Below, piece after piece: positions 2,745-14,460 of a stretch of DNA of 64,000 nucleotides. Under the pieces are notes generated by a model that worked only from the letters and a program-made list of their open reading frames with translations, was not told the origin of the DNA and made no database searches. Positions within the stretch are counted from its first letter, which is position 1; every line of letters begins with the position of its first letter. Position numbers and translations under genes: made by a program. The stretch spans positions 879 to 64,878 of the forward strand of contig CAVYCI010000003.1 in assembly GCA_963766925.1 (NCBI GenBank). The letters are read 5' to 3'. Source of the DNA: an uncultured Alphaproteobacteria bacterium. Its GTDB lineage: Bacteria; Pseudomonadota; Alphaproteobacteria; Rhizobiales; Xanthobacteraceae.

Positions 2745-3497
2745 TTAGCTGGCGGCCTGGAGGCGGGCAGCGCCTTTCCGCCCACGGCGCCAGCCAAAAA
2801 AGCCGAAGGCCCCAAAACCCCCGGCAAACAGCGGCAGAGTCGCCGGCAGCGGCGTAGATGATGTTCCCCCTTGAATGAAGGGATTGCCCCACGTCAGGTC
2901 ATCAAGCTCGAAAGAGTTCTGAGATGACGAAAGGACGACGCTGTTAAACACAGCGTTATCACCAAGGATGTTGCTGATGGTGATAAACTGGTTGTTTGCA
3001 TAATCGGTCTGCGACCCTTGCGCGCTCGTGGGCGGAATGATCGCTGCGGCCGCCTGCGTGCCGGTGACCGTCTCGAGCAGCGTACCGTTGTTGTAAAATG
3101 AAATGGAATTATAGGAATTGATCGAGCCCCAATACAGGCCGAGTTTGGTGTACGACCCGGTGAACGCAACATTCTCGCTGGTGCCGCCCAGCACAGCCAG
3201 ATATTGGGAGCTGTCACCAAGCGGCTCGGCGTAAAGACCGAGCGACGTACCGGGGCCCGGATTTGTCATTAGAATACCACCCCCCGAAAAAGCCGCGCCT
3301 CCGTCCGAAAACGGACCCTGAGGGCTGGTTTGACCGTAGGTCGTGGTCGACGGCGGGCTGTTGAAATTCGCGACGTTTCCAAAACTGACGGTGGAATATG
3401 AATCCGTGTTCGAGGACGTAATGGTAGCGGCATTTGCCGCACCCGACGAGACAGCCAGGACGGCAACACCAACACCTGCAAAAAACGATCTGTTCAT
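2745..3497 (-). CDS. Secreted protein with a PEP-CTERM-like (VPLPA-type) C-terminal sorting tail
   Basis: ATG at 3497. Signal peptide MNRSFFAGVGVAVLAVSSGAANA. Ser/Thr/Gly/Asn-rich body. C-terminus is TPLPATLPLFAGGFGAFGFFGWRRGRK: a Pro motif, a TM helix and a basic cluster. Confidence 0.7.
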   Translation of the reverse strand: MNRSFFAGVGVAVLAVSSGAANAATITSSNTDSYSTVSFGNVANFNSPPSTTTYGQTSPQGPFSDGGAAFSGGGILMTNPGPGTSLGLYAEPLGDSSQYLAVLGGTSENVAFTGSYTKLGLYWGSINSYNSISFYNNGTLLETVTGTQAAAAIIPPTSAQGSQTDYANNQFITISNILGDNAVFNSVVLSSSQNSFELDDLTWGNPFIQGGTSSTPLPATLPLFAGGFGAFGFFGWRRGRKGAARLQAAS

Positions 3498-3663
3498 TGC
3501 GCTATCTTTCCCGGCCACGTTAGAATTTCTGATAGTTTGAACACAATATTGACCGGGGTCAACGCGAAGCCCCCAGTGACCCTGACATTTGTTAGTATTG
3601 CCGACTTAACGATCAGACCGATTGACCCCGCCGGGGCAAGCGGCGTGTTGCGCTACCCCAACG

Positions 3664-3718: not shown

Positions 3719-4288
3719 TCAGGCGGTAGCGACCGCAACGGAACGCTTCTTCATTCCGCGAAAGGCAAACAGGCCAAGACCGGCGAAGCCCGCGACCAGC
3801 ATTGTCCAGGTCGACGGGAGGGGAGTTGCGGTCACACTCCCAAACAGATCCACTTGGCTCTGACCAGGGCTCTGTCCCAGAATATATGGAGCGCCGCTTC
3901 CTGGGGAGAAAATGTTCACGTCCGTGTTCGTGACGGTATTGAGGACGAGCAGTCCGGGGTTATCGAACGCCGTTCCAAATGGCGAATTCAGCGCGGGATA
4001 CAGAACGTTGTCATACAACCACTGGCCGTCGGGACTGGTGGCAGACCCTGGAGGAGTGACAGCACTGCCAAGAAGGGTCACGGCATCGCCCAATATCGTG
4101 CCGGTAACACCGGTAATGGCGACGCCCGCGCCTTCGGCACCGCCCGTAGTGATGTCGAGGCTGACCACGACCGCACCGGACGGCGTCAGTGACCCCGTAA
4201 AAAGAAACGTTGAAGCCCTCGCAGCCGGAGCAAGCGAAATAATAGCCATCGCCACGGCGGCTGCAGAAAGGACGGTCAACTTCTTCAT
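3719..4288 (-). CDS. Secreted protein with a PEP-CTERM-like C-terminal sorting tail
   Basis: ATG at 4288 preceded by AAGGGGAA. Signal peptide MKKLTVLSAAAVAMAIISLAPAARA. C-terminus is TPLPSTWTMLVAGFAGLGLFAFRGMKKR. Confidence 0.7.
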   Translation of the reverse strand: MKKLTVLSAAAVAMAIISLAPAARASTFLFTGSLTPSGAVVVSLDITTGGAEGAGVAITGVTGTILGDAVTLLGSAVTPPGSATSPDGQWLYDNVLYPALNSPFGTAFDNPGLLVLNTVTNTDVNIFSPGSGAPYILGQSPGQSQVDLFGSVTATPLPSTWTMLVAGFAGLGLFAFRGMKKRSVAVATA

Positions 4289-4602: not shown

Positions 4603-5436
4603 TTATCGCAGAGCGCGCAACCCGCACATCCAGGACAGCAACTCCCCGTCCGGTGCCGCAAGCGCGTCGAGGATCGTAAAATGGGTTCGGCCGGCGACCT
4701 CGTACAGTTCGGCCCGCGCCCTGCGTGCGCGCCACTCTGCGACAAAGTCGGCCGTCCATCGCTTGAACCCTCGTGTTTCGTCGCCACCGACCAAGCCGAG
4801 CAAAGGTACCAGGGTGACGCCTTCCCTGAGTGCCCTGAGGCGAAGCAACGGACTGGATTCGGCGGCTTCGTCCTCTGACAGACCGAGATCGATATTGATC
4901 GAAGTGTGCAGCAGCGGCCGCAGATCGAACGCGCCGCTGATGGTCGCCAGTCCGATAATTGGCCCCTCCCCACGGGTTGCCTGATCAAGCGCCAGCATGG
5001 CGGCGAGCTGGCCGCCGGCGGAGTGTCCGGAAACAACAATGCATTCGGGCTCGAGATGTCTGACAGTCCAGTTCAACGCCAGACGCATTTGATCGGCGAT
5101 GCCGCCGACACGAACGGCCGGAACCAGGTCGTAGTTCGGCATGACCACCGTTATGCCGGCGTTGCGATACGGCTCCGCGATGAAGGAAACATAAGACTTG
5201 TCGAGCGCCCGCCAGTAGCCGCCGTGGATGAAAAACAGAATCGGCGCGCGGTCGCCCGCTGGGAAAATATCAAGAAGGCAACGCGGGCCCGCCGCATAGC
5301 GTTGATTCAGAAGACAGGCGCCATTGCTCCGCACGATCGCGCTGCGGCGTTGGTGGCCGTCATAGACCAGCTCACGTTCGGGGTGCCGCCTGCGCAGAGC
5401 GAACTCGGCTTCCAGCGCGTCGTCGATCATTGCCAA
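4603..5436 (-). CDS. Alpha/beta hydrolase, arylformamidase/esterase-like
   Basis: FFIHGGYWRALDK oxyanion-type motif and a VSGHSAGGQL nucleophile elbow (GxSxG). It is the last gene of the Liv-type operon, 16-22 nt after livF. The start is TTG 5436 or ATG 5430. Confidence 0.75.
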   Translation of the reverse strand: MAMIDDALEAEFALRRRHPERELVYDGHQRRSAIVRSNGACLLNQRYAAGPRCLLDIFPAGDRAPILFFIHGGYWRALDKSYVSFIAEPYRNAGITVVMPNYDLVPAVRVGGIADQMRLALNWTVRHLEPECIVVSGHSAGGQLAAMLALDQATRGEGPIIGLATISGAFDLRPLLHTSINIDLGLSEDEAAESSPLLRLRALREGVTLVPLLGLVGGDETRGFKRWTADFVAEWRARRARAELYEVAGRTHFTILDALAAPDGELLSWMCGLRALR

Positions 5437-5452
5437 AATGCCCTTCGATCCA

Positions 5453-6169
5453 TCAGGGTTTGAGATAAGCCTCTTTGACGCCGGGATCGTTCATCAGCAC
5501 GCTGGTTTCCGCGCCGCTCACGAGTGCCCCCTCCGCCAGCACGTAGCCATATGTCGCCACGCGCAGCGCCATATTGGCGTTCTGCTCGGCCAGCAGAATC
5601 GACATGCCCGCCTCATTGAGGTGCCTGATGGTCGCGAAAATTTCCTGGACCACCCGGGGAGCAAGCCCGATCGACGGTTCGTCGAGGAGAAGAAGCCTCG
5701 GCTTCGACATCAGAGCCCGCCCGATCGCCAGCATTTGCTGCTCTCCGCCGGACAGCAGCCCGGCGGCCTGACGCTCGCGTTCGCGAAGCCGCGGGAACAG
5801 GTCGAACACCATCGCCATGTCGGCCGCCACCGTGCGATCGCGCCGTGGCCACAGCCGGCGGAAGGCGCCCATTTCAAGATTCTCGCGAACCGTCATCGGC
5901 GAAAAGACGCGCCGGCCTTCCGGCACGAGAGTAACGCCGTAATCCAGCCGGGTGGACGCGGAGCGGCCGGCAATATCGGTGCCCTCGATCAGGATCCGCC
6001 CTTCGTTCGGCGGCAGCAGGCCGCCTAGGCAGCGCAGCAGCGTTGTCTTGCCGGCACCGTTGGCGCCGATCAGACAGACCGACTGTCCGCGCCCGACCCG
6101 GAACGAAATTCGATGCAGAACTTCGATGCTGCCGTAGCCCGCGGTCAGCGCTTCGACTTCAAGCATCAT
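5453..6169 (-). CDS. livF: Branched-chain amino acid-type ABC transporter ATP-binding protein (LivF-like)
   Basis: Walker A GANGAGKTT, signature LSGGEQQML, Walker B LLLLDEPS. Overlaps the livG stop. Confidence 0.9.
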   Translation of the reverse strand: MMLEVEALTAGYGSIEVLHRISFRVGRGQSVCLIGANGAGKTTLLRCLGGLLPPNEGRILIEGTDIAGRSASTRLDYGVTLVPEGRRVFSPMTVRENLEMGAFRRLWPRRDRTVAADMAMVFDLFPRLRERERQAAGLLSGGEQQMLAIGRALMSKPRLLLLDEPSIGLAPRVVQEIFATIRHLNEAGMSILLAEQNANMALRVATYGYVLAEGALVSGAETSVLMNDPGVKEAYLKP

Positions 6170-6932
6170 CGGTCGCACCCAGATACGCGGTCAGGACGTC
6201 CGGATGCCTGCTGATTGCTTCGCCCGGACCTTCCGCGATCCGAACGCCATTGTTCAGAACAAGAATGTCGTGGGAAAGCGACATGACCATGCGCATGTTG
6301 TGCTCGACGAGCAGCACCGTCATTCCCTGTTCGTTCAGGGCCCTGATGATGCCTTCCATGTGATCGGCTTCCGCCCGCGGCAGTCCGGCGGTCGGCTCGT
6401 CGAGCAGAAGGAGACGCGGCCCGCCGGCAAGCGCGCGTGCGAGTTCGAGCATCTTCATTTCTCCGTAGCTCAGCGCGCCGGCCGGAACGTGTGCCTTGCC
6501 GGCGAGACCGAAACGCCGGAGCAAATCGAATGAAGCTTCCTCGAGCGCACGCTCTTCGGCGCGAAATGACCTGTCGCGCAGAATGGCGTGAGCGAAACCG
6601 GCGCGGCCGCGCAGATGACATCCGGCGACCACATTTTCCAGAACGGTCATATCGCGGAAGATCTGAAGGTTCTGGAATGTGCGGGCGATGCCGAGGCGCG
6701 CCCGCGCAAATGTCGGCAGGGTATCGATGCGGCGGCCGTCGAACCAGATATGACCGGACGTGTGGCGTGTAACGCCGGCGATCATGTTGAAGAGCGTGCT
6801 TTTGCCGGCTCCATTGGGCCCGATGACCGCCTTTATCTCCCCGGCCGCGACATCGAAACTGAGGTCAGCAACGGCGCGAAGTCCCTGGAAATTGCAGTTC
6901 AGTGCTTCAATCTTCAGGAGCGTTGTGCTCAC
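6159..6932 (-). CDS. livG: Branched-chain amino acid-type ABC transporter ATP-binding protein (LivG-like)
   Basis: Walker A GPNGAGKST, signature LSYGEMKML, Walker B LLLLDEPTAG. The GTG start overlaps the livM stop (GTGA). Confidence 0.9.
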   Translation of the reverse strand: MSTTLLKIEALNCNFQGLRAVADLSFDVAAGEIKAVIGPNGAGKSTLFNMIAGVTRHTSGHIWFDGRRIDTLPTFARARLGIARTFQNLQIFRDMTVLENVVAGCHLRGRAGFAHAILRDRSFRAEERALEEASFDLLRRFGLAGKAHVPAGALSYGEMKMLELARALAGGPRLLLLDEPTAGLPRAEADHMEGIIRALNEQGMTVLLVEHNMRMVMSLSHDILVLNNGVRIAEGPGEAISRHPDVLTAYLGATDDA

Positions 6933-7966
6933 GCCGGCCTCCCGCGCCCGCGGGCATGCCGGTTTCGCAACGCCGAGGGTATGCCGGCGAGGCCGCGCGG
7001 AAAGACAACGAGCACGACCAGCATGCCGGCACCGAACAGCAGGAGCTCGGCGTCTTCGTAATCAAGCAAAAGTTGCGGTACGGCAGTGTAAATAATCGCT
7101 CCAAGCACCGGTCCCCAATACGTTCCGGAGCCGCCAAGCGCGACCATCACGACCAGAAGGATGGAGCTCGCGACGCCAAACGTTTCCGGTGAGGCGTACT
7201 GGTTGATGTGGACGTAAAGACTGCCGGCAATTCCCGCCATCCCGGCGCTCATCACAAAAAACAGAAGCTTGACGCGCGCGCTGTCGATGCCCAGCGCTTC
7301 GGCTCCGAGTTCGTTGGTCGCGACTGCGCGGAGCGCGCGGCCGGGCCGCGAGTGCAGGAGGTGCAGAATGGCGACCATCACCAGAAGCGACATCAGCCAG
7401 ACGAGCGGAAATTCGCGCAGGTCGGTGTCGAGCCGGAAACCGCCGATCGAAAATGGCGCAACACCGAGCAGCCCGTTGGGCCCCCCGGTGAGATCGACCA
7501 GGCGGTTGAACAGGACGACGAGAATTGCATTCCAGCCGAGCGTGGCCATCGACAGGTACAAACCGCGCAGCCGCAGAACAGGAACGCCGATCACGAGAGC
7601 GGCCAGACCTGTCGCGAGCATGGCCGCCGGCAATCCGATCCAGCCGGCAATGCCGAACCGGGCACTGAGAATACCGCTGACGTAGGCCCCGAGGCCGAAG
7701 AAGCCGGCGTGGCCCAGCGAAATCTGTCCGCCGTAGCCCATCAGAAGATTAAGGCTCGCGATCAGAATAACGTTGATCAGCAGGAGATTCGCAAGCGAGA
7801 CCAGATAATTGTTGGGAGCAGCAAACGGCACGACAAGAAAAACGAGCCACAGGAGCAGCAATCGCCAACGACCGGACGCAAACGATCCGGCCGGCCTGCC
7901 AGCCGCACGATCCGGCCGGCGTGGGCCGGCGTTCGCGGGAAATGGGCGCGCGTTTTTGCTGTTCAT
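6929..7966 (-). CDS. livM: Branched-chain amino acid-type ABC transporter permease (LivM-like)
   Basis: 345 aa, multi-TM, with a typical LivM core (LNLLMGYGGQISLGHAGFFGLGAY). Confidence 0.85.
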   Translation of the reverse strand: MNSKNARPFPANAGPRRPDRAAGRPAGSFASGRWRLLLLWLVFLVVPFAAPNNYLVSLANLLLINVILIASLNLLMGYGGQISLGHAGFFGLGAYVSGILSARFGIAGWIGLPAAMLATGLAALVIGVPVLRLRGLYLSMATLGWNAILVVLFNRLVDLTGGPNGLLGVAPFSIGGFRLDTDLREFPLVWLMSLLVMVAILHLLHSRPGRALRAVATNELGAEALGIDSARVKLLFFVMSAGMAGIAGSLYVHINQYASPETFGVASSILLVVMVALGGSGTYWGPVLGAIIYTAVPQLLLDYEDAELLLFGAGMLVVLVVFPRGLAGIPSALRNRHARGRGRPA

Positions 7967-7986
7967 GGGCGGCGCCGAACCATCGG

Positions 7987-8869
7987 TCAGACTTTGGTTA
8001 TTTCGGCGCGGCCAAAAAATCCGGACGGACGCAGAAACAGAATCAGCAGCAGGACCGCGAAAGCGATCGCGTCCTTGAAGTCGGACGAAATATAGAAACT
8101 GCCGAATGCCTCCAGCAGTCCGAGTGCGATACCGCCCGCCACCGCTCCACCCAGGCTCCCGATCCCGCCCAGCATCGCGGCGCTGAAGCCTTTGAAACCG
8201 AAAGCAGCGCCCTGATCGTACGAGGCGAGCGTGAGCGGCGTGATGATCGCGCCCGCCAGCGCGCCGGCGAAGGCCGCGATGGCAAATGACAGCATGACCG
8301 TCGTCTCGACCCTCACCCCGACGATCGCTGCCGCCTCACGGTCGGCGGCCGCCGCGCGAAGCGCCTTGCCCAGCATGCTGCGTTCGAAAAACAGATGCAT
8401 GGCGATCAGAAAAACGAGCGTAATGCCGAAAATCCAGAGCGTTTGCGTCTGAAAGCTGATCCCCAAAAACCCGAGGCTTTCGGTTTTTGAAAATCCCGGA
8501 TATCCGACCGGGCTTTTGCCGAGGATCAGCATCATCAGTCCGCGCGTGCAGATGGCAAGTCCGATGCTGATCAGCGTGATCAGCAGCGGGTTGGGGTTAC
8601 GCAACGGCCGGATGACCAGCCGTTCGGAGACGATACCGACGATCGGCCACCAGCAAAACGGCAACGAGACAGGCCAGCGCGACATTGTTCGTTGCGGCAA
8701 ACAGCAGGGCCGAAATCATGCCGCCCATCACCACCCATTCGCCCTGCGCGAAATTCATCGCGCCAGTGCTTTTGAACACCACGTTGAAGCCGAGCGCCAT
8801 GAGTGCGTAAATGCTGCCGGTGCCCGCACCGATGACAAGCAGCTGGACCACGGTCGCCGCGGTGTGCAT
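7987..8869 (-). pseudogene. livH: LivH-like ABC permease interrupted by a +1 frameshift near 8645-8656
   Basis: ATG at 8869 gives MHTAATVVQLLVIGAGTGSIYALMALGFNVVFKSTGAMNFAQGEW...LVAVLLV. The next frame continues PIVGIVSERLVIRPLRNPNPLLITLISIGL... to a stop at 7987. Total 883 nt = 3n+1. Confidence 0.8.
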
Positions 8870-8877
8870 CGCCGCGG

Positions 8878-9807
8878 TCAGAACGTTCGCATGCGGTTGG
8901 TTTCGAACGCCGGGATCACGACGCCCATTTCGCGAAACCTCTGCCGCGCGTTGGCGACGTAGGTTGCCATCGTGTCTTCTTCCTGGGCGCGGCTTGCCGC
9001 ACCCAGGCCCGCTGCGGCACACGCCGCGTCTGCGTCCGCCTCGGCGGCTGCGTGTTCCGGCGCGAGCCAAGGGCAGTGGTAGCCCTTGAACTCCGTATCG
9101 CGGATGTGTGCCGCGACCTGCTCCGCGATGAGCCCGCACTCCGCCGCGGTCCAGCGCGGAGCTCTGCTGGCGAGGTAAAGCCATCCGAACGCCGCGTGCC
9201 GTTCCTTGTCGGCAATGATGTGATCGAGCATTGCAGCGATTGCCGGATTTTTTGCGTTGATCCGCCAGGTGCGGCAGAGCTCCAGTTCGAGCCCGTCCTC
9301 GAAAGCGCAGAAACACGCCACGTAGCTGTCGAGATGCTGCGCGGCGTCGAGCACGCGGCGATGCAGGTTGCGGTTGAACGCCGCCTCATAACCGCGATTG
9401 GCCGGCCTCGTAAGACGGCCTCCGAATGCGTCTGTCACGCGTTCGAAACACTCGACATGCCACGCCTCTTCGGTGTTGCGCACCGTGAGAAAAAACTTGG
9501 GGTCGATTTCGCGGCCGGTCTCCATGCAGAGGCGGACCAACAGGGCAGGAGTTTCGGTAAGGCCGGTGACCTCCATCCACAGCCGTCTGCTCCAGGTCCG
9601 CCTCGCCGCTTCGCGGGTCGGCGCATCGTATTGTTCAGGACGCAATTCGCTCCAGGCGATGTCGCGATGCGGATTCCAGCGGCCTGCCTTGCCGGTATCG
9701 TAAAGCTCCCGGATCTGCGGAAGCGTGACATTCATTTCGAGCGGAAAGCGCCGTTCGACCAGAAGGCGAAGCGGCGGCAGCGCGGCCTGGCCTGCGGCGC
9801 CCTGCAT
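8878..9807 (-). CDS. Ferritin-fold di-iron carboxylate protein, RNR-R2-like (paralogue B)
   Basis: Ligand-like motifs WMEVTGLTETPAL, NTEEAWH (ExxH), FEDGLELE and ADKERH (ExxH). About 30-35% similar by eye to the upstream paralogue. The ATG at 9807 lies 1 nt after the upstream TGA (TGAgATG). Confidence 0.7.
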   Translation of the reverse strand: MQGAAGQAALPPLRLLVERRFPLEMNVTLPQIRELYDTGKAGRWNPHRDIAWSELRPEQYDAPTREAARRTWSRRLWMEVTGLTETPALLVRLCMETGREIDPKFFLTVRNTEEAWHVECFERVTDAFGGRLTRPANRGYEAAFNRNLHRRVLDAAQHLDSYVACFCAFEDGLELELCRTWRINAKNPAIAAMLDHIIADKERHAAFGWLYLASRAPRWTAAECGLIAEQVAAHIRDTEFKGYHCPWLAPEHAAAEADADAACAAAGLGAASRAQEEDTMATYVANARQRFREMGVVIPAFETNRMRTF

Positions 9808-9808
9808 C

Positions 9809-10762
9809 TCAGATGGTACCAAGCTTGGGATGCGAAAACGGCGGCAGGTTGATGCCCAGCGGCCGCATCTGCTCGCGGATGCGCCTTACGGTGGCGATGA
9901 AGACCGGCTTTTCGATTTCCTCGATCGTTGAGCCGAGGCCGGCTTCGTAGGTAACACGATCGGCTTCAACCTCGGTCCGCGACGCCGGGCTGTCGGGCGC
10001 CAGCCAGGAGCTGTGATAGCCGTTGAGTTCGACTTTCTCCATCATGGCGATGACGGAGTCTTCGATCATTTTCTTCTGATCGGGGCTGAGCGTTTCGCAG
10101 ATGGCCTCGAGGAAATACCAGCCGAACGCGCAGTGACGGGATTCGTCCCTCATGATGAAGCGGACGATCTGCTTCGCGACCGGGTCGCGCGTTACGTCGT
10201 CGAGATGACGGAAGACGTCGAACGCAATTTCCTCGGCCGTGCAGACCAGAGCGGCAATAATGCCTTCAAGCGGGGTGCTGGCGCTGAGTGCCGCGCGCCG
10301 TACCCCATGGGTGGCGACCGATCCCTCGAACAGCTGCTGCACCGGCTTTTCAATATAGCCGCCGAGCTTCTCCGCCATGGCGTGACACACTTCGGCATGG
10401 CGCGCCTCTTCCTGCGATCGAATCGTAAAAAACAGCTGCATGTCCGACGGCCGCTGCTCTACGCCAAAGCGCACCTGCAGGGCCGGACTTTCCGAGATGG
10501 CACCGTATTCGCTCCAGGCGCGTCTGCTCCAGTACAGGCGTGCGGCGTAACGCTGATCTTCGGTGTAAGCTTCCGGATCGAGCAGTTCCCATTGCACGTC
10601 GGTTTTTGGATCCCACTGGCTCCGGGTTGCGGTGTGAAAGAGTTCCCGAATCCGCGGCAAGTCCGAATTGAACGTAAGCGGGAACCTGCTTTCGGGCTGG
10701 TCGAGCAGCGTCTGCACCACCTCGAATGCCTGTTCCGCGGACATCTCGCGCGAAAGTGCCAT
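9809..10762 (-). CDS. Ferritin-fold di-iron carboxylate protein, RNR-R2-like (paralogue A)
   Basis: SQWDPKTDVQWELL...YWSRRAWSEYGAISESPAL resembles the R2 N-terminal motif. It also has SQEEARH (ExxH), CTAEEIAFD and MRDESRH (ExxH). The ATG is preceded by AAGGAA. Confidence 0.7.
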   Translation of the reverse strand: MALSREMSAEQAFEVVQTLLDQPESRFPLTFNSDLPRIRELFHTATRSQWDPKTDVQWELLDPEAYTEDQRYAARLYWSRRAWSEYGAISESPALQVRFGVEQRPSDMQLFFTIRSQEEARHAEVCHAMAEKLGGYIEKPVQQLFEGSVATHGVRRAALSASTPLEGIIAALVCTAEEIAFDVFRHLDDVTRDPVAKQIVRFIMRDESRHCAFGWYFLEAICETLSPDQKKMIEDSVIAMMEKVELNGYHSSWLAPDSPASRTEVEADRVTYEAGLGSTIEEIEKPVFIATVRRIREQMRPLGINLPPFSHPKLGTI

Positions 10763-10791
10763 GGTCTGTTCCTTTCGAATAACGGTCCCGT

Positions 10792-11958
10792 TTACGCGTA
10801 GTCGACGAGATTGAACCGTCCGTCGCGCCAGTTGATCAGGACAATATCCTGTTTCGACAGGCCCGAATGACGTTCGGCAGAAAAGTTGAAGACACCGCTG
10901 ACGCCGGCAAAGTTCCGGATTTTCTCCAGACCTTCGGGCAGCTTCGACGGATCACCGCCGACGTTGAGAAGTCCCTGCCGCGCCAGCATCGCGGCATCGT
11001 AGGATTCGGCGGCATAAAAACTCGGAGCGCGGGCGAAGCGGGCCTGATAGCTGTTGAACAGCTTCAGGATGCCCGATTTGAGCGGGTCAGAATCCGGCAA
11101 TTGATCTCCGACCGGAAGCTTGAGGCTTGCCAGCAAAATCGAACCGGCGGCATCCCCGGCGAGCGTCATGTAACGCGACGAAACGAACCCGTAGCTGTGA
11201 AGCAATGTCCGGCTGTCGAGGCCCAGTTCGCGCGCCTGTTTGATGAAAATGACGCCCGCCGGAGTGACGGTCCAGCAGATCACGGCGCCGGCCCCGCTGT
11301 CGCGAATGCGCGTGAGCTGGGGCATCATGTCGGTGTCGGCAGGCCCGAAGGTTTCGTACACGACTTCAAGTTTTCGGCGCGGACCAACCTTGTGCATCTG
11401 GGTCACGGCGCCCTGCCCGAAGCCGCTGGTGTCGGCGATCAGCGCTACCTTGCTGATGTTTTTCTTTTCCAGATAGTCGGCGATACGTTCAAGTACGTCT
11501 TCGTCGTCGACCGTGCTCTTGAACGTCCAGCGACGCTCGGCGACCGGGGTAACGATGGCAAGAGCGCCTTCGCTGGAGATGAACGGAATTTTGGCAGCCT
11601 CCGTCATGGGCGCCATTGCCAGCGCAATGCCGCTCATGTTGCCGCCGCTCACGATGAGCTGGACCTGATCCTGGCTGATCAGGCGGCGGGTCGCAGTTAT
11701 GGCCTTCTGGGTCTGGCTTTCGGCATCGTAAAAGGTCCAGGCGATTTGTCGCCCGTTGATCCCGCTGGAAGCGTTGATCTCGTCGACCGCGAGCTGGAGG
11801 CCGGCCTTCATGTCTTCGCCGAGAAAGGCCGCAGGCCCGGTGACAGACAGGATCGAGCCGACGCGAAGCGGTTCGTCCGCCGCACGCGCGGCCCCCACTT
11901 TCATCGCTGCAAGGGCACCGGGAACAAGCTGAAAGAACTGACGTCGTCCGAGCCGCAC
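10792..11958 (-). CDS. ABC transporter periplasmic substrate-binding protein (Leu/Ile/Val-binding protein family)
   Basis: The GTG at 11958 is 5 nt after AGGAGG. Tat-like RRQFF followed by ...GAARA. Type-1 PBP pattern LRVGSILSVTGPAAFLGEDMKAGLQLAVDEINA. The ORF track extends to 11973. Confidence 0.85.
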   Translation of the reverse strand: MRLGRRQFFQLVPGALAAMKVGAARAADEPLRVGSILSVTGPAAFLGEDMKAGLQLAVDEINASSGINGRQIAWTFYDAESQTQKAITATRRLISQDQVQLIVSGGNMSGIALAMAPMTEAAKIPFISSEGALAIVTPVAERRWTFKSTVDDEDVLERIADYLEKKNISKVALIADTSGFGQGAVTQMHKVGPRRKLEVVYETFGPADTDMMPQLTRIRDSGAGAVICWTVTPAGVIFIKQARELGLDSRTLLHSYGFVSSRYMTLAGDAAGSILLASLKLPVGDQLPDSDPLKSGILKLFNSYQARFARAPSFYAAESYDAAMLARQGLLNVGGDPSKLPEGLEKIRNFAGVSGVFNFSAERHSGLSKQDIVLINWRDGRFNLVDYA

Positions 11959-12032
11959 GATAGCCTCCTGCACTTTACCGGCACTTGCCTTCCAGGTGCC
12001 GCTGATCTTTCACGCGCGCGTAATTCGGCCCG

Positions 12033-12851
12033 TCAGTCGTCGTGAACGCCCGTACAACCGTTTTCGGCGCGGGCGCCTTCGCGGGCCAGCGGCACCTGAA
12101 GCGAATAGCGTACAAGATCGCCGCGGTGGACCGTGTGGCCCGCCATCACGTGACGGCCGTTGACGTCGCGGTATCGCAAATTTCGGATCAAAACCGGCGC
12201 GTTGGCGCCAAGGTGGAGATACTCAATTTCCTCCGGGCCGGCGATGCCTGCTTCAATCGCGAAGTCACCCGTACGCAGCTCCAGTCTTTGCCAGAGGAGG
12301 TGGAGCGGCGATCCGCGGGCGGATGTTTCATTCCAGTCGGCCACGAGATCGTTGGGAATGTAGCGGTAATCGATCGCGACCGGCGCACCGACGGCGGCGC
12401 GCACCCGTTTGATGAACAGCACGACGGCGCTGGCGTCGAGCCGAAGTGCGGCCCCGATGGTGTCTCCGGCCACACGGCGTTCGAAAGCGAGCAGCGTCGA
12501 TTGCATCGGAACGCCGCTTGATTCCCATTGGCGCAGGAAGTCCATGCCCGGTCCGAAGCGTTCTTCCAGCTTGCGCATCGATACGAACGTGCCGACGCCG
12601 CGGCCACGTCGCAGCAGCCCCTCGCGCACCAGTTCTGCAAGCGCCTGGCGGACGGTTTCCCGGCTGACGCAGAAGACCGCGCAAAGCTGTTCATCGGAAT
12701 AGAAGCGGCGGTCCGGTTGATCCCAGCGCAAAATCAAACCGATCAGTCGCTGTTTTATTTGAGCGTACAGGGGCAGAGGCGAGGAACGATCGAGTGGCGG
12801 GTTGGCCCAGGCCGCATGCGCCAAATTCCGATTTGCTGCCATTTCGCTCAT
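12033..12851 (-). CDS. GntR-family transcriptional regulator (HutC/UTRA subfamily)
   Basis: wHTH PLYAQIKQRL...SDEQLCAVFCVSRETVRQALAELVREGLLRRGRGVGTFV with a UTRA-like C-terminal half. It is the first gene of the minus-strand operon. Confidence 0.85.
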   Translation of the reverse strand: MSEMAANRNLAHAAWANPPLDRSSPLPLYAQIKQRLIGLILRWDQPDRRFYSDEQLCAVFCVSRETVRQALAELVREGLLRRGRGVGTFVSMRKLEERFGPGMDFLRQWESSGVPMQSTLLAFERRVAGDTIGAALRLDASAVVLFIKRVRAAVGAPVAIDYRYIPNDLVADWNETSARGSPLHLLWQRLELRTGDFAIEAGIAGPEEIEYLHLGANAPVLIRNLRYRDVNGRHVMAGHTVHRGDLVRYSLQVPLAREGARAENGCTGVHDD

Positions 12852-12942
12852 TAATTTAATTGTCTATCTTGCCATACATTTAATCAAGCCCAATTTTGTC
12901 TGCCTGCGCCGGAGGTCTCCCGTGCTATCGTCTGCGTCAAGC

Positions 12943-13191
12943 ATGATGAAACGCGAGACCTTTTCGGTCGCAGACATCTACGTGCCGGTGAAACGGCGCG
13001 CCACGCTGGAGCAAAAGCGTGTCGATGACATTGCCGCGAGCATGCTCGAGAGCGGCCAGCAATCCCCGATCCTGGTACGGCCCGATGGCGCGCGCTTTAT
13101 CCTGGTCGAAGGCCTGCACCGGCTGGAGGCTGCGAGGGCGCTTGGCGAGAAAACCATAGTCGGGTTCCGCGTCGACGCGCGCAAGCATTGA
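12943..13191 (+). CDS. Stand-alone ParB/sulfiredoxin-like N-terminal domain protein (82 aa)
   Basis: MMKRETFSVADIYVPVKRRATL...SPILVRPDGARFILVEGLHRLEAARALG. The xGxHRxxAxxxxG core is typical of ParB-like nuclease/Srx domains. There is no HTH or dimerisation domain. Confidence 0.6.
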   Translation: MMKRETFSVADIYVPVKRRATLEQKRVDDIAASMLESGQQSPILVRPDGARFILVEGLHRLEAARALGEKTIVGFRVDARKH

Positions 13192-13593: not shown

Positions 13594-14460
13594 ATGCAGG
13601 GGTCTTATCGCAGCATCTGGACGGAATTACTTGCAACTCCCTTCCGGCAGGGATGGGTCGATGCCGGCGGCATCAGGACACGCTTTGTGCAGGCCGGCAA
13701 CGAAGCAAACCCGCCGCTTGTCATGCTTCATGGTACCGCGGGCAGCCTGGAAAATTTCGCCGCCAACTTCGCCGCGCACGCGGAACACTTCAACTGCATC
13801 GCATTCGACATGATCGGCTCGGGGATGACCGGGAAGCCGGACTATGACTATGAGACGGAGCATTATGTGAAGCATGCCGTGGACTTTTTCAAAGCCATGG
13901 ACATTGACAGGGCTTCGATCATCGGCCTGTCGCTCGGTGCGCGCGTCGCAAGCCGCTTCGCGATCGACCATCCGGACAAGGTGAACCGGCTTATTCTGCT
14001 TTCCGCGACGGCTTACTTTCCGGCGAGGCCCGTGCAGGGCGACATCAGCAAAACGCGATCGACGGCTGCCGCCAATCCGACATGGGATAATATCCGCGAG
14101 ATCTTCAAAGGCCTGTTTCACGACGAAAACAAAGTGTGGGACGATCTCATTGCCACACGGCTGTTGCTGTATGCGCGGCCCGACATGAAGCGCGCGATGG
14201 CACACATCCTTGCGCTGCTCCAACCCGACATCTACAATCGAAACCGGATCCCTGACGATGACTGGCGAAAGTTACGCGCGCCCACGCTGCTGATTGCGGC
14301 GGTCGACCACCAGGACGTATTTCTTGAAACCGTGAGGGCGATCGCCAAACTCATTCCGAACGCCAGCGTTTTTGAGATGAAGAACTGCAGTCATTGGCCG
14401 CAAATGGAAGATCCGGACACATTCAACAGGCAAAGCCTGGCATTTCTTCGCGCCGATTGA
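13594..14460 (+). CDS. Alpha/beta hydrolase, meta-cleavage product (C-C bond) hydrolase-like (MhpC/BphD/HsaD type)
   Basis: AGGGAGA RBS. Motifs PLVMLHGTAGS, GLSLGARVA (GxSxG) and C-terminal NCSHWPQMEDPDTFN. Confidence 0.8.
   Translation: MQGSYRSIWTELLATPFRQGWVDAGGIRTRFVQAGNEANPPLVMLHGTAGSLENFAANFAAHAEHFNCIAFDMIGSGMTGKPDYDYETEHYVKHAVDFFKAMDIDRASIIGLSLGARVASRFAIDHPDKVNRLILLSATAYFPARPVQGDISKTRSTAAANPTWDNIREIFKGLFHDENKVWDDLIATRLLLYARPDMKRAMAHILALLQPDIYNRNRIPDDDWRKLRAPTLLIAAVDHQDVFLETVRAIAKLIPNASVFEMKNCSHWPQMEDPDTFNRQSLAFLRAD

Follow-up and report, generated by a model that had tools for sequence, protein, structure and literature searches.

The window analysed here is a stretch of 64,000 nucleotides from an uncultured Alphaproteobacteria bacterium of the Xanthobacteraceae (contig CAVYCI010000003.1). 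It contains a string of nine genes in which two adjacent genes, encoding the paralogous proteins A and B, lie inside the gene set of a Liv-type ATP-binding cassette (ABC) importer. The order is a GntR-family regulator, a periplasmic substrate-binding protein (SBP), A, B, livH, livM, livG, livF and a serine alpha/beta hydrolase (Table 1). The string is most likely a catabolic operon induced by its substrate, a small organic acid that contains nitrogen, and an amide bond in this compound is likely. With moderate confidence we propose that A is the catalytic subunit of an oxidising enzyme, that B is its degenerate partner and that the pathway includes hydrolysis of an amide. Judged from their sequences, A and B would be an O2-activating enzyme of the ferritin-fold type and its degenerate paralogue, encoded in an importer/amidase context that is unusual and well conserved.

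In the scheme that we infer, from the association of the two subunits and the oxygen chemistry to the order of the steps and the nature of the substrate, the HutC-type regulator would control the string, and the compound would be imported by the Liv-type SBP, exported by the twin-arginine (Tat) route, together with LivHMGF. In the cytoplasm, a dimer of the R2-like proteins A and B, with an O2-activating two-metal centre (Fe/Fe or Mn/Fe) in A, would oxidise the substrate, with hydroxylation or desaturation beside the nitrogen as the most plausible reaction. B, with its degenerated metal site, would be a structural or substrate-binding partner, as PaaC is for PaaA. The amide bond that the alpha/beta hydrolase would cut may be part of the substrate from the start or may be uncovered by the oxidation. 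Further steps, possibly via a 4-oxo or 4-hydroxy acid, may be catalysed in other genomes by a Rid-family protein together with an acyl-CoA ligase, SDR, kinase and acyl-CoA dehydrogenase (ACAD).

A and B are 31 % identical (BLASTP E 3e-46; hhalign E 2e-58) and are paralogues, as the first-pass annotation of this DNA had stated. The AlphaFold2 models (pLDDT 81.6 for A and 81.1 for B, pTM 0.82) also bear out the R2-like ferritin fold claimed there: the best Foldseek matches of both predicted folds were R2-like ligand-binding oxidases, or R2lox proteins (E ~1e-5, TM 0.60-0.70, 13-18 % identity), and the top 30-47 matches with E<=1e-3 consisted of R2lox and the R2 subunit of ribonucleotide reductase (RNR), with PaaA present as well for A (4iit_A, rank 39). 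When the profile of A was aligned with two Sulfolobus R2lox proteins, the alignment ran through the WDP motif and the region of the first carboxylate and took in both ExxH motifs.

Assignment to a family gave a different picture. In Pfam, A had only sub-threshold matches to DUF455 (PF04305, 28.4 bits against a threshold of 34.3), AurF (PF11583, 25.7 against 29.6) and R2 (PF00268, 21.9 against 33.6), and B had no match, PF04305 and PF11583 included. The R2lox models of NCBIfam scored 12-20 bits with A and B against cut-offs of 194-315 (NF006200, 19.9 for A and 17.9 for B against 194; NF006198, 15.8 against 274; NF006202, 14.6 against 315), the PaaA model TIGR02156 scored 15.9 against 280, and the NrdF and NrdB models 11-14 bits against cut-offs above 300 (NrdF 14.2 against 355). 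Searches of the PDB sequences with A itself and with a 13-sequence profile gave nothing beyond weak similarity to R2lox and aldehyde decarbonylase. The profile comparison with the ferritin-like clan, which the first-pass annotation had named as a check, thus returned no Pfam or NCBIfam family of known function that claims either protein. The predicted structures support an R2-like ferritin fold for A and B; membership of R2lox, RNR R2, AurF, PaaA or DUF455 is not supported.

A profile search of 1.84 billion representative proteins found 774, 195 and 60 relatives at E <=1e-3, 1e-10 and 1e-30, respectively, many of them fragments. On these numbers the A/B family appears small and separate, not merging with the large R2 or AurF families. 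Its members are labelled in their sources "ferritin-like domain-containing protein" or "hypothetical", in some sources "AurF", and a full-text literature search for the family found no paper on it among those covered. Two leads from the literature were dropped: a "ferritin-like" proteomics match in Advenella is a bacterioferritin, and the enzymes in papers on Mn/Fe hydroxylases have another fold, that of amidohydrolases. A plasmid collection gave one match, on a Paraburkholderia megaplasmid, without annotation. Three apparent A-B, B-hydrolase or extended fusions (P0280, P0302 and P0269), considered as Rosetta-stone proteins, proved to be garbled, frameshifted gene calls and were set aside.

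The same data bear on whether A and B could be a divergent pair of RNR small subunits. The R2-like N-terminal motif and fold and the RNR R2 proteins among the Foldseek matches agree with such an origin. It is effectively refuted by the R2, NrdF and NrdB model scores given above, by the place of the radical tyrosine (His+4), which is an invariant cysteine, C126, in A and F121 in B (Phe, Cys or Tyr across the orthologues), and by the importer context. In the analysed loci no large-subunit (nrdA/nrdE-like) gene family is conserved, and no locus has a large-subunit gene.

The metal ligands were compared in 84 A and 78 B sequences from related loci. The candidate ligands of A are E85 or E91, E119-x-x-H122, E177 and E207-x-x-H210, and E85, E91, E119, H122, E177, E178, E207 and H210 are each kept in at least 97 % of the A sequences. 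The motifs listed for A in the first-pass annotation (the N-terminal WDP...YWSRR, SESPAL, EEARH, TAEE and DESRH) are present in the translation, and this conservation, with the alignment to the R2lox motifs, upholds its claim that A keeps a full E/ExxH/E/ExxH set. Since distant family members retain E177 and have Gln or Gly in place of E178, E177 is likely to be the third ligand. The first carboxylate may be E85 instead of the E91 chosen earlier; both are invariant. E85 is located 35 residues past the Trp of the WDP motif and 34 ahead of E119, which fits the spacing in R2 and R2lox better. Three cysteines beside the metal ligands, C126 (H122+4), C174 (E177-3) and C211 (directly after H210), are invariant in A and not conserved in B.

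In B, by comparison, the metal site appears degenerate. The first-pass annotation had credited B with a full ligand set as well, which the sequence does not allow: its DKERH motif reads K-x-x-H, and the Glu is two, not three, residues before the His. K201 of B stands opposite ligand E207 of A with no gaps there in either the BLASTP or the hhalign alignment, and the column holds Lys in 73 and Arg in 5 of the 78 orthologues. H117 is kept in 77 % (Gln, Ala or Leu in 23 %) and E170 in 85 % (lost in 15 %), and E79, E85, E113, E114 and H204 are retained. B has also diverged more than A, with 51 % identity to the Achromobacter protein compared to 65 % for A, and 41-55 % compared to 58-74 % in farther lineages. 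Because the ligands of A are kept, while B has Lys or Arg at the place of E207 and relaxed H117 and E170 positions, it is more likely that A is the catalytic subunit and B a degenerate partner, as in PaaA/PaaC. In the complete genome of Ottowia sp. VDI28, B is split into two open reading frames (ORFs; L078, 10910-11868, chromosome); the gene could be a true pseudogene, or the split could come from a frameshift error.

A heterodimer with a working di-iron centre in both subunits, as first proposed, is consequently improbable, and the claim of two intact sites is not supported, given the conserved Lys/Arg at the last Glu and the two further relaxed ligands of B. It would be favoured by the shared fold and by the residues that the B protein of the window still has (E79/E85, E114-x-x-H117, E170/D171 and H204, with D200 and E202 flanking K201). 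The invariably basic residue in an ungapped part of the alignment and the faster evolution of B argue the other way, as does precedent: the PaaA/PaaC and multicomponent monooxygenase alpha/beta pairs have one dead site each. These are likewise adjacent ferritin-fold paralogues in which one two-metal site is kept and the other has lost ligands. We would still expect A and B to associate, given their adjacency in essentially every locus, the translational coupling suggested by TGAgATG at their junction and the dimeric habit of R2 proteins.

The conservation of the locus was examined by scanning one genome per species (185,579 species), which gave 188 stretches encoding a relative of A; the counts below refer to the best 80 of these unless stated otherwise. 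Neighbouring genes were called with a GC3-based caller, which served for the loci and was poor on the window (60 % GC). The hosts are Alphaproteobacteria (Xanthobacter, Bradyrhizobium, Rhodopseudomonas, Pseudolabrys, Azospirillum, Amorphus and Acuticoccus), Betaproteobacteria (Achromobacter, Variovorax, Ottowia, Comamonas, Verticiella, Candidimonas and Lautropia) and a few Gammaproteobacteria and Acidimicrobiales bins. When the window proteins were used in tblastn, the order GntR-SBP-A-B-livHMGF-hydrolase was found in nearly every sufficiently long locus, and the gene calls of Achromobacter gave the same order, with about 63-65 % identity for A. The linkage of SBP, A, B and livHMGF, on which the first-pass annotation had made its reading depend, is thus strongly conserved across alpha-, beta- and some gammaproteobacteria. 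Where a locus extends far enough upstream, a GntR gene nearly always adjoins the cluster.

The exceptions are informative about the core of the system. Liv genes are missing from five loci (L070, L071, L074, L081 and L082) that retain A, B and the hydrolase; the GntR gene adjoins A in four of them and not in L070. Just after the hydrolase come a PotD-like SBP_bac_8 gene in L082 and a Dpp-like SBP_bac_5 gene in L074. Because of these Liv-less loci, some with genes for other ABC binding proteins, the core of the system is the regulator, A, B and the hydrolase, and the importer is exchangeable. In five other loci (L048, L053, L062, L073 and L083) a signature amidase (PF01425, 342 bits) after livF replaces the alpha/beta hydrolase, and in a Rhodospirillaceae lineage a creatininase-family amidohydrolase of 417 aa is encoded between B and livH (L066, L067; L084 11907-13160). 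Two loci have two A-type genes in tandem before B (A-A'-B; L071 3364-6244 and L083 8841-11907).

These exchanges, together with the position of the genes, make a non-enzymatic role very unlikely. A and B might in that case be ferritin-like proteins for iron handling or stress, or R2lox-like lipid-binding proteins, that travel with an importer; the ferritin-like fold would be in line with this, and R2lox, the closest structure, is a fatty-acid-binding protein for which no catalytic role is known. Yet the two genes sit between the SBP and permease genes of a regulated importer with their frames overlapping or nearly so, they stay with the hydrolase when the importer type changes, and there are no iron-regulation genes nearby. 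At 310-320 aa with R2 topology, A and B also differ from ferritins and rubrerythrins of 160-180 aa.

The hydrolase has the HGGYW and GxSxG motifs and is arylformamidase-like, as had been noted, with E 4e-16 to the Drosophila kynurenine formamidase 4e11. The uncharacterised esterases/lipases 9n8r and 2pbl are closer to it than 4e11, and the HaHSL model of NCBIfam reaches 150 against a cut-off of 320. It stays beside A-B even in loci without Liv genes. Its step would be the cleavage of an amide (or ester), and an amide-cleaving role is best supported by the amidase exchange, since a signature amidase takes the place of the hydrolase in five loci.

The importer is of the Liv (HAAT) type, as annotated before, with Peripla_BP_6, two BPD_transp_2 and two ATPase domains (one with BCA_ABC_TP_C) and a frameshifted livH, discussed below. 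The SBP carries the twin-arginine signal GRRQFF, as read from the translation, and it is not a LivJ/LivK or UrtA orthologue by the NCBIfam cut-offs (NF011933, 69 against 477). Its nearest structures are 3sg0, 4dqd, 4gnr and 3ip5-3ipc (Agrobacterium Atu2422), at E 1e-29 to 1e-19; 3sg0 and 4dqd are Rhodopseudomonas receptors that bind aromatic (keto-)acids. All are too distant for the ligand to be named. The regulator has the GntR and UTRA domains above the Pfam thresholds (PF00392, 40 bits; PF07702, 72.5 bits), confirming the HutC type. It reaches no NCBIfam equivalog cut-off, those of HutC (92 against 220) and PhnF (84 against 157) included, and its nearest structures are NagR/YvoA and DasR; by these comparisons it is a generic HutC-subfamily member.

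It is unlikely, for several of these reasons, that A and B form the hydroxylase of a multicomponent monooxygenase of the PaaABCE, BoxAB or toluene/phenol type, with the reductase and ferredoxin encoded elsewhere and aromatic or acyl-CoA epoxidation or hydroxylation as the reaction. PaaA does occur among the structure matches of A and gives a weak NCBIfam match, PaaA/PaaC of phenylacetyl-CoA epoxidase also belong to a catabolic operon, the pattern of a catalytic and a degenerate paralogue is common to both, the nearest solved SBPs are aromatic-acid binders, and an acyl-CoA ligase adjoins the cluster in some genomes. The score of A with the PaaA model is nevertheless far below its cut-off and there is no sequence membership. 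No PaaB, PaaD, PaaE, reductase, ferredoxin, coupling protein or effector was found near A/B among the gene families present in at least five scanned loci. What is conserved beside A/B is an importer and a hydrolase or amidase for amides, and enzymes of the latter kind are not used in such systems.

Returning to the proposed oxidation by A and amide hydrolysis, a more specific chemistry can be put forward tentatively, although we consider it rather unlikely to be correct in this form: oxidation at the position adjoining nitrogen in a secondary amide or lactam, which would give a primary amide and a carbonyl compound. Hydroxylation or desaturation there would account for the amidase, for the creatininase-type enzyme seen occasionally and for the 4-oxo/4-hydroxy-acid module. 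Nothing here points specifically to an arylamine as the substrate, which the first-pass annotation had suggested beside an amino-acid-like compound.

The 4-oxo/4-hydroxy-acid module is based on genes outside the window. In Achromobacter and in L030, L044, L047 and L077, genes for an acyl-CoA (AMP) ligase, an SDR, an ACAD and an APH-type kinase adjoin the cluster in differing arrangements, and in Achromobacter they follow the Rid gene at spacings of 34, 14 and -4 nt. By gene content this set resembles the LvaA-E and ACAD10/11 sets, which handle 4-hydroxyacyl-CoA (PMC6692424, PMC11342911, PMC10802472); its NCBIfam matches are generic. By this analogy there is a hint that the product of the pathway is a 4-oxo or 4-hydroxy acid. 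The Rid/YjgF-family gene itself is found directly 3' of the hydrolase in 37 loci (e.g. L001 16166-16558) and is absent from the window. Its product has Ala or Ser at the column of RidA Arg105 in 19 of 19 sequences, the column being set by the E. coli RidA sequence, and scores 61 against 106 with TIGR00004. It is probably not a standard imine deaminase.

Several points weigh against the proposed pathway. The hydrolase may act on esters and not be an amidase. A RidA protein would have been a sign of an imine intermediate, and since the catalytic Arg105 is missing, the Rid-family gene gives no support for such an intermediate and was ruled out as evidence. The window and most alphaproteobacterial loci lack the 4-hydroxyacyl-CoA-like set, which may be lineage-specific or unrelated. 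Finally, the fold match says little about the chemistry, because R2lox has no known physiological reaction.

The nine minus-strand genes were confirmed from the ORF coordinates at the places first given for them, and the domain labels hold in Pfam (GntR+UTRA, Peripla_BP_6, BPD_transp_2 twice, ABC_tran twice, one with BCA_ABC_TP_C, and Abhydrolase_3). The gaps between the genes also agree, at 59, 29, 1 (TGAgATG), 8, 20, -4, -11 to -20 and 16 nt, the overlap of livG and livF depending on the livF start chosen. A promoter and terminator scan found no terminator-like site in the minus-strand intergenic gaps within the string, and no consensus sigma-70 match upstream of the regulator gene (12852-12943).

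The position of livH as a member of the operon stands, whereas its earlier description as a plain member overlooked that it is split by a frameshift. In the Pfam search, positions 3-66 of the BPD_transp_2 profile were matched in one frame and 69-269 in another. The interruption is a +1 frameshift caused by a single extra base near 8643-8646 (GGCCGATCG; window 8640-8650, minus strand). Nine relatives lack the base: the contigs L088 and L089 (99 % identity, with the same A protein as the window), L090 (96 % DNA identity) and six others with ~90 %. In related loci livH is unbroken (289-294 aa). The two 99 % identical contigs have single-base indels of their own, L088 in livM, livF and the hydrolase and L089 near the end of livH. 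Because the extra base is absent from the relatives and the closest contigs bear their own indels, the frameshift is probably an error of the long-read consensus assembly rather than gene decay.

Table 1 Features of the gene string in the window and of associated genes in other loci
Feature	Position	Strand	Basis or remark
GntR-family regulator, HutC subfamily (winged helix-turn-helix + UTRA effector domain)	12033-12851	minus	first gene of string
Liv/HAAT-type periplasmic substrate-binding protein	10792-11973	minus	PF13458, 186 bits
Paralogue A, 317 aa, predicted R2-like ferritin fold	9809-10762	minus	AlphaFold2/Foldseek, ligand conservation
Codons for E207-S-R-H210 of A (second ExxH)	10133-10144	minus	translation DESRH; invariant in A alignment
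Paralogue B, 309 aa, predicted R2-like fold, degenerate metal site	8878-9807	minus	starts 1 nt past A stop (TGAgATG)
Codons for K201-E-R-H204 of B (Lys in place of Glu ligand)	9196-9207	minus	translation DKERH
livH-type permease, split by frameshift	7987-8869	minus	BPD_transp_2 in two frames
livM-type permease	6929-7966	minus	BPD_transp_2, 139 bits
livG-type ATPase	6159-6932	minus	ABC_tran, 112 bits, + BCA_ABC_TP_C
livF-type ATPase	5453-6178	minus	ABC_tran, 105 bits
Serine alpha/beta hydrolase, fold-3 type (Abhydrolase_3)	4603-5436	minus	PF07859, 52 bits; HGGYW oxyanion motif, GHSAG nucleophile
AT-rich divergent intergenic region 5' of regulator gene, presumed promoter/operator	12852-12943		sequence reading
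Ligase/SDR/ACAD/kinase genes	L001 4764-6401 and 16593-19632		
420-430 aa divergent protein	L001 6438-7727	minus	
420-430 aa divergent protein	L084 6323-7585	minus	

Some neighbouring genes deserve mention. Just 3' of the hydrolase, at 2745-3518 and 3719-4288 (minus strand), the window encodes two secreted proteins with weak, sub-threshold matches to PEP-CTERM sorting motifs, which are outside the conserved cluster. A small ParB_N-like ORF (~12944-13191, plus strand) is divergent from the GntR gene and is followed by an HsaD/BphD-like alpha/beta hydrolase (13594-14460, plus strand); both are also found in the 99 % identical relatives and not in the wider set of loci. A protein of 420-430 aa, divergent from the GntR gene, is encoded in 22-25 loci of the beta- and gammaproteobacterial versions, Liv-less ones included. 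No Pfam, NCBIfam or PDB match was obtained for it, and the window does not encode it. Judging by the match coordinates, it appears to head the ligase/SDR/ACAD/kinase string in L044 and L047.

Ferritin-fold two-metal enzymes carry out some of the hardest oxidations in biology. Because A and B share a tightly conserved and regulated operon with genes for an importer and an amide hydrolase, their function is within experimental reach: ligand screens with the SBP, effector screens with the regulator and knock-outs could find the substrate, and among the culturable hosts are Achromobacter xylosoxidans A8 (AXYL_05216), Xanthobacter flavus and species of Azospirillum. Such work could uncover a catabolic pathway and a type of reaction that are both new. 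The conserved Lys in B would be a further natural case of an R2 metal site that was retired while the subunit was kept. It might even be, though we hold this to be doubtful, that A and B are a heterodimer of a new enzyme class on the R2 scaffold, in which one Fe/Fe or Mn/Fe site is active and Lys fills the other, and which, with no dedicated reductase, oxidises an imported amide or lactam beside its nitrogen by hydroxylation, desaturation or oxidative cleavage. If true, the system would provide the first physiological reaction for the R2lox-like branch and a previously unknown aerobic catabolic route completed by an amidase.

Of the known systems, R2lox (Geobacillus kaustophilus 4hr0; M. tuberculosis Rv0233, 3ee4) resembles A and B in helix order and is the closest structural match. 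It shares with A the WDP-type N-terminal motif and, by profile, both aligned ExxH motifs, and like A/B it has no dedicated reductase gene; no such reductase or ferredoxin gene recurs near the A/B cluster among the gene families in at least five scanned loci. The identity is only 13-18 %, however, and the R2lox model cut-offs are not reached. R2lox is a homodimer with two intact Mn/Fe sites, whereas A and B are paralogues and B has Lys in its site. In profile alignments with 6qrz and 7qbk, Gly87 of A falls opposite the Val (first ligand Glu+3) that takes part in the Val-Tyr ether cross-link of R2lox; the register in this stretch may be off by one residue. No R2lox gene is known to lie in an importer operon.

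The arylamine N-oxygenases AurF and CmlI (PF11583) are also ferritin-like di-iron oxygenases without a dedicated reductase gene; they act on nitrogen and have weak Pfam similarity to A. They are homodimers encoded in biosynthetic clusters, in contrast to the paralogue pair of a catabolic importer operon described here, and the extra His ligand of AurF, four residues before the last Glu, corresponds to Ile203 in A. The metal-free class Ie RNR R2 proteins (7mmp, 8bt4) are among the structure matches of A. In these, carboxylate ligands are replaced, one of them by Lys, a likeness to B; B differs in keeping most other ligands, in having no radical tyrosine and in having no NrdE or NrdI partners.

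In pathway logic alone, the closest parallels are DavB/DavA, with lysine 2-monooxygenase, IaaM/IaaH and the Rut system for pyrimidines (RutA-D), in each of which an O2-dependent step is combined with an amide hydrolase. The oxygenases of these systems are flavoproteins unrelated to A and B, so that the likeness is one of analogy and not of homology. It extends to individual partners: IaaH is a signature amidase, like the enzyme that substitutes for the hydrolase in five loci, and the Rut system has, like the A/B loci, a Rid-family protein and an alpha/beta hydrolase.

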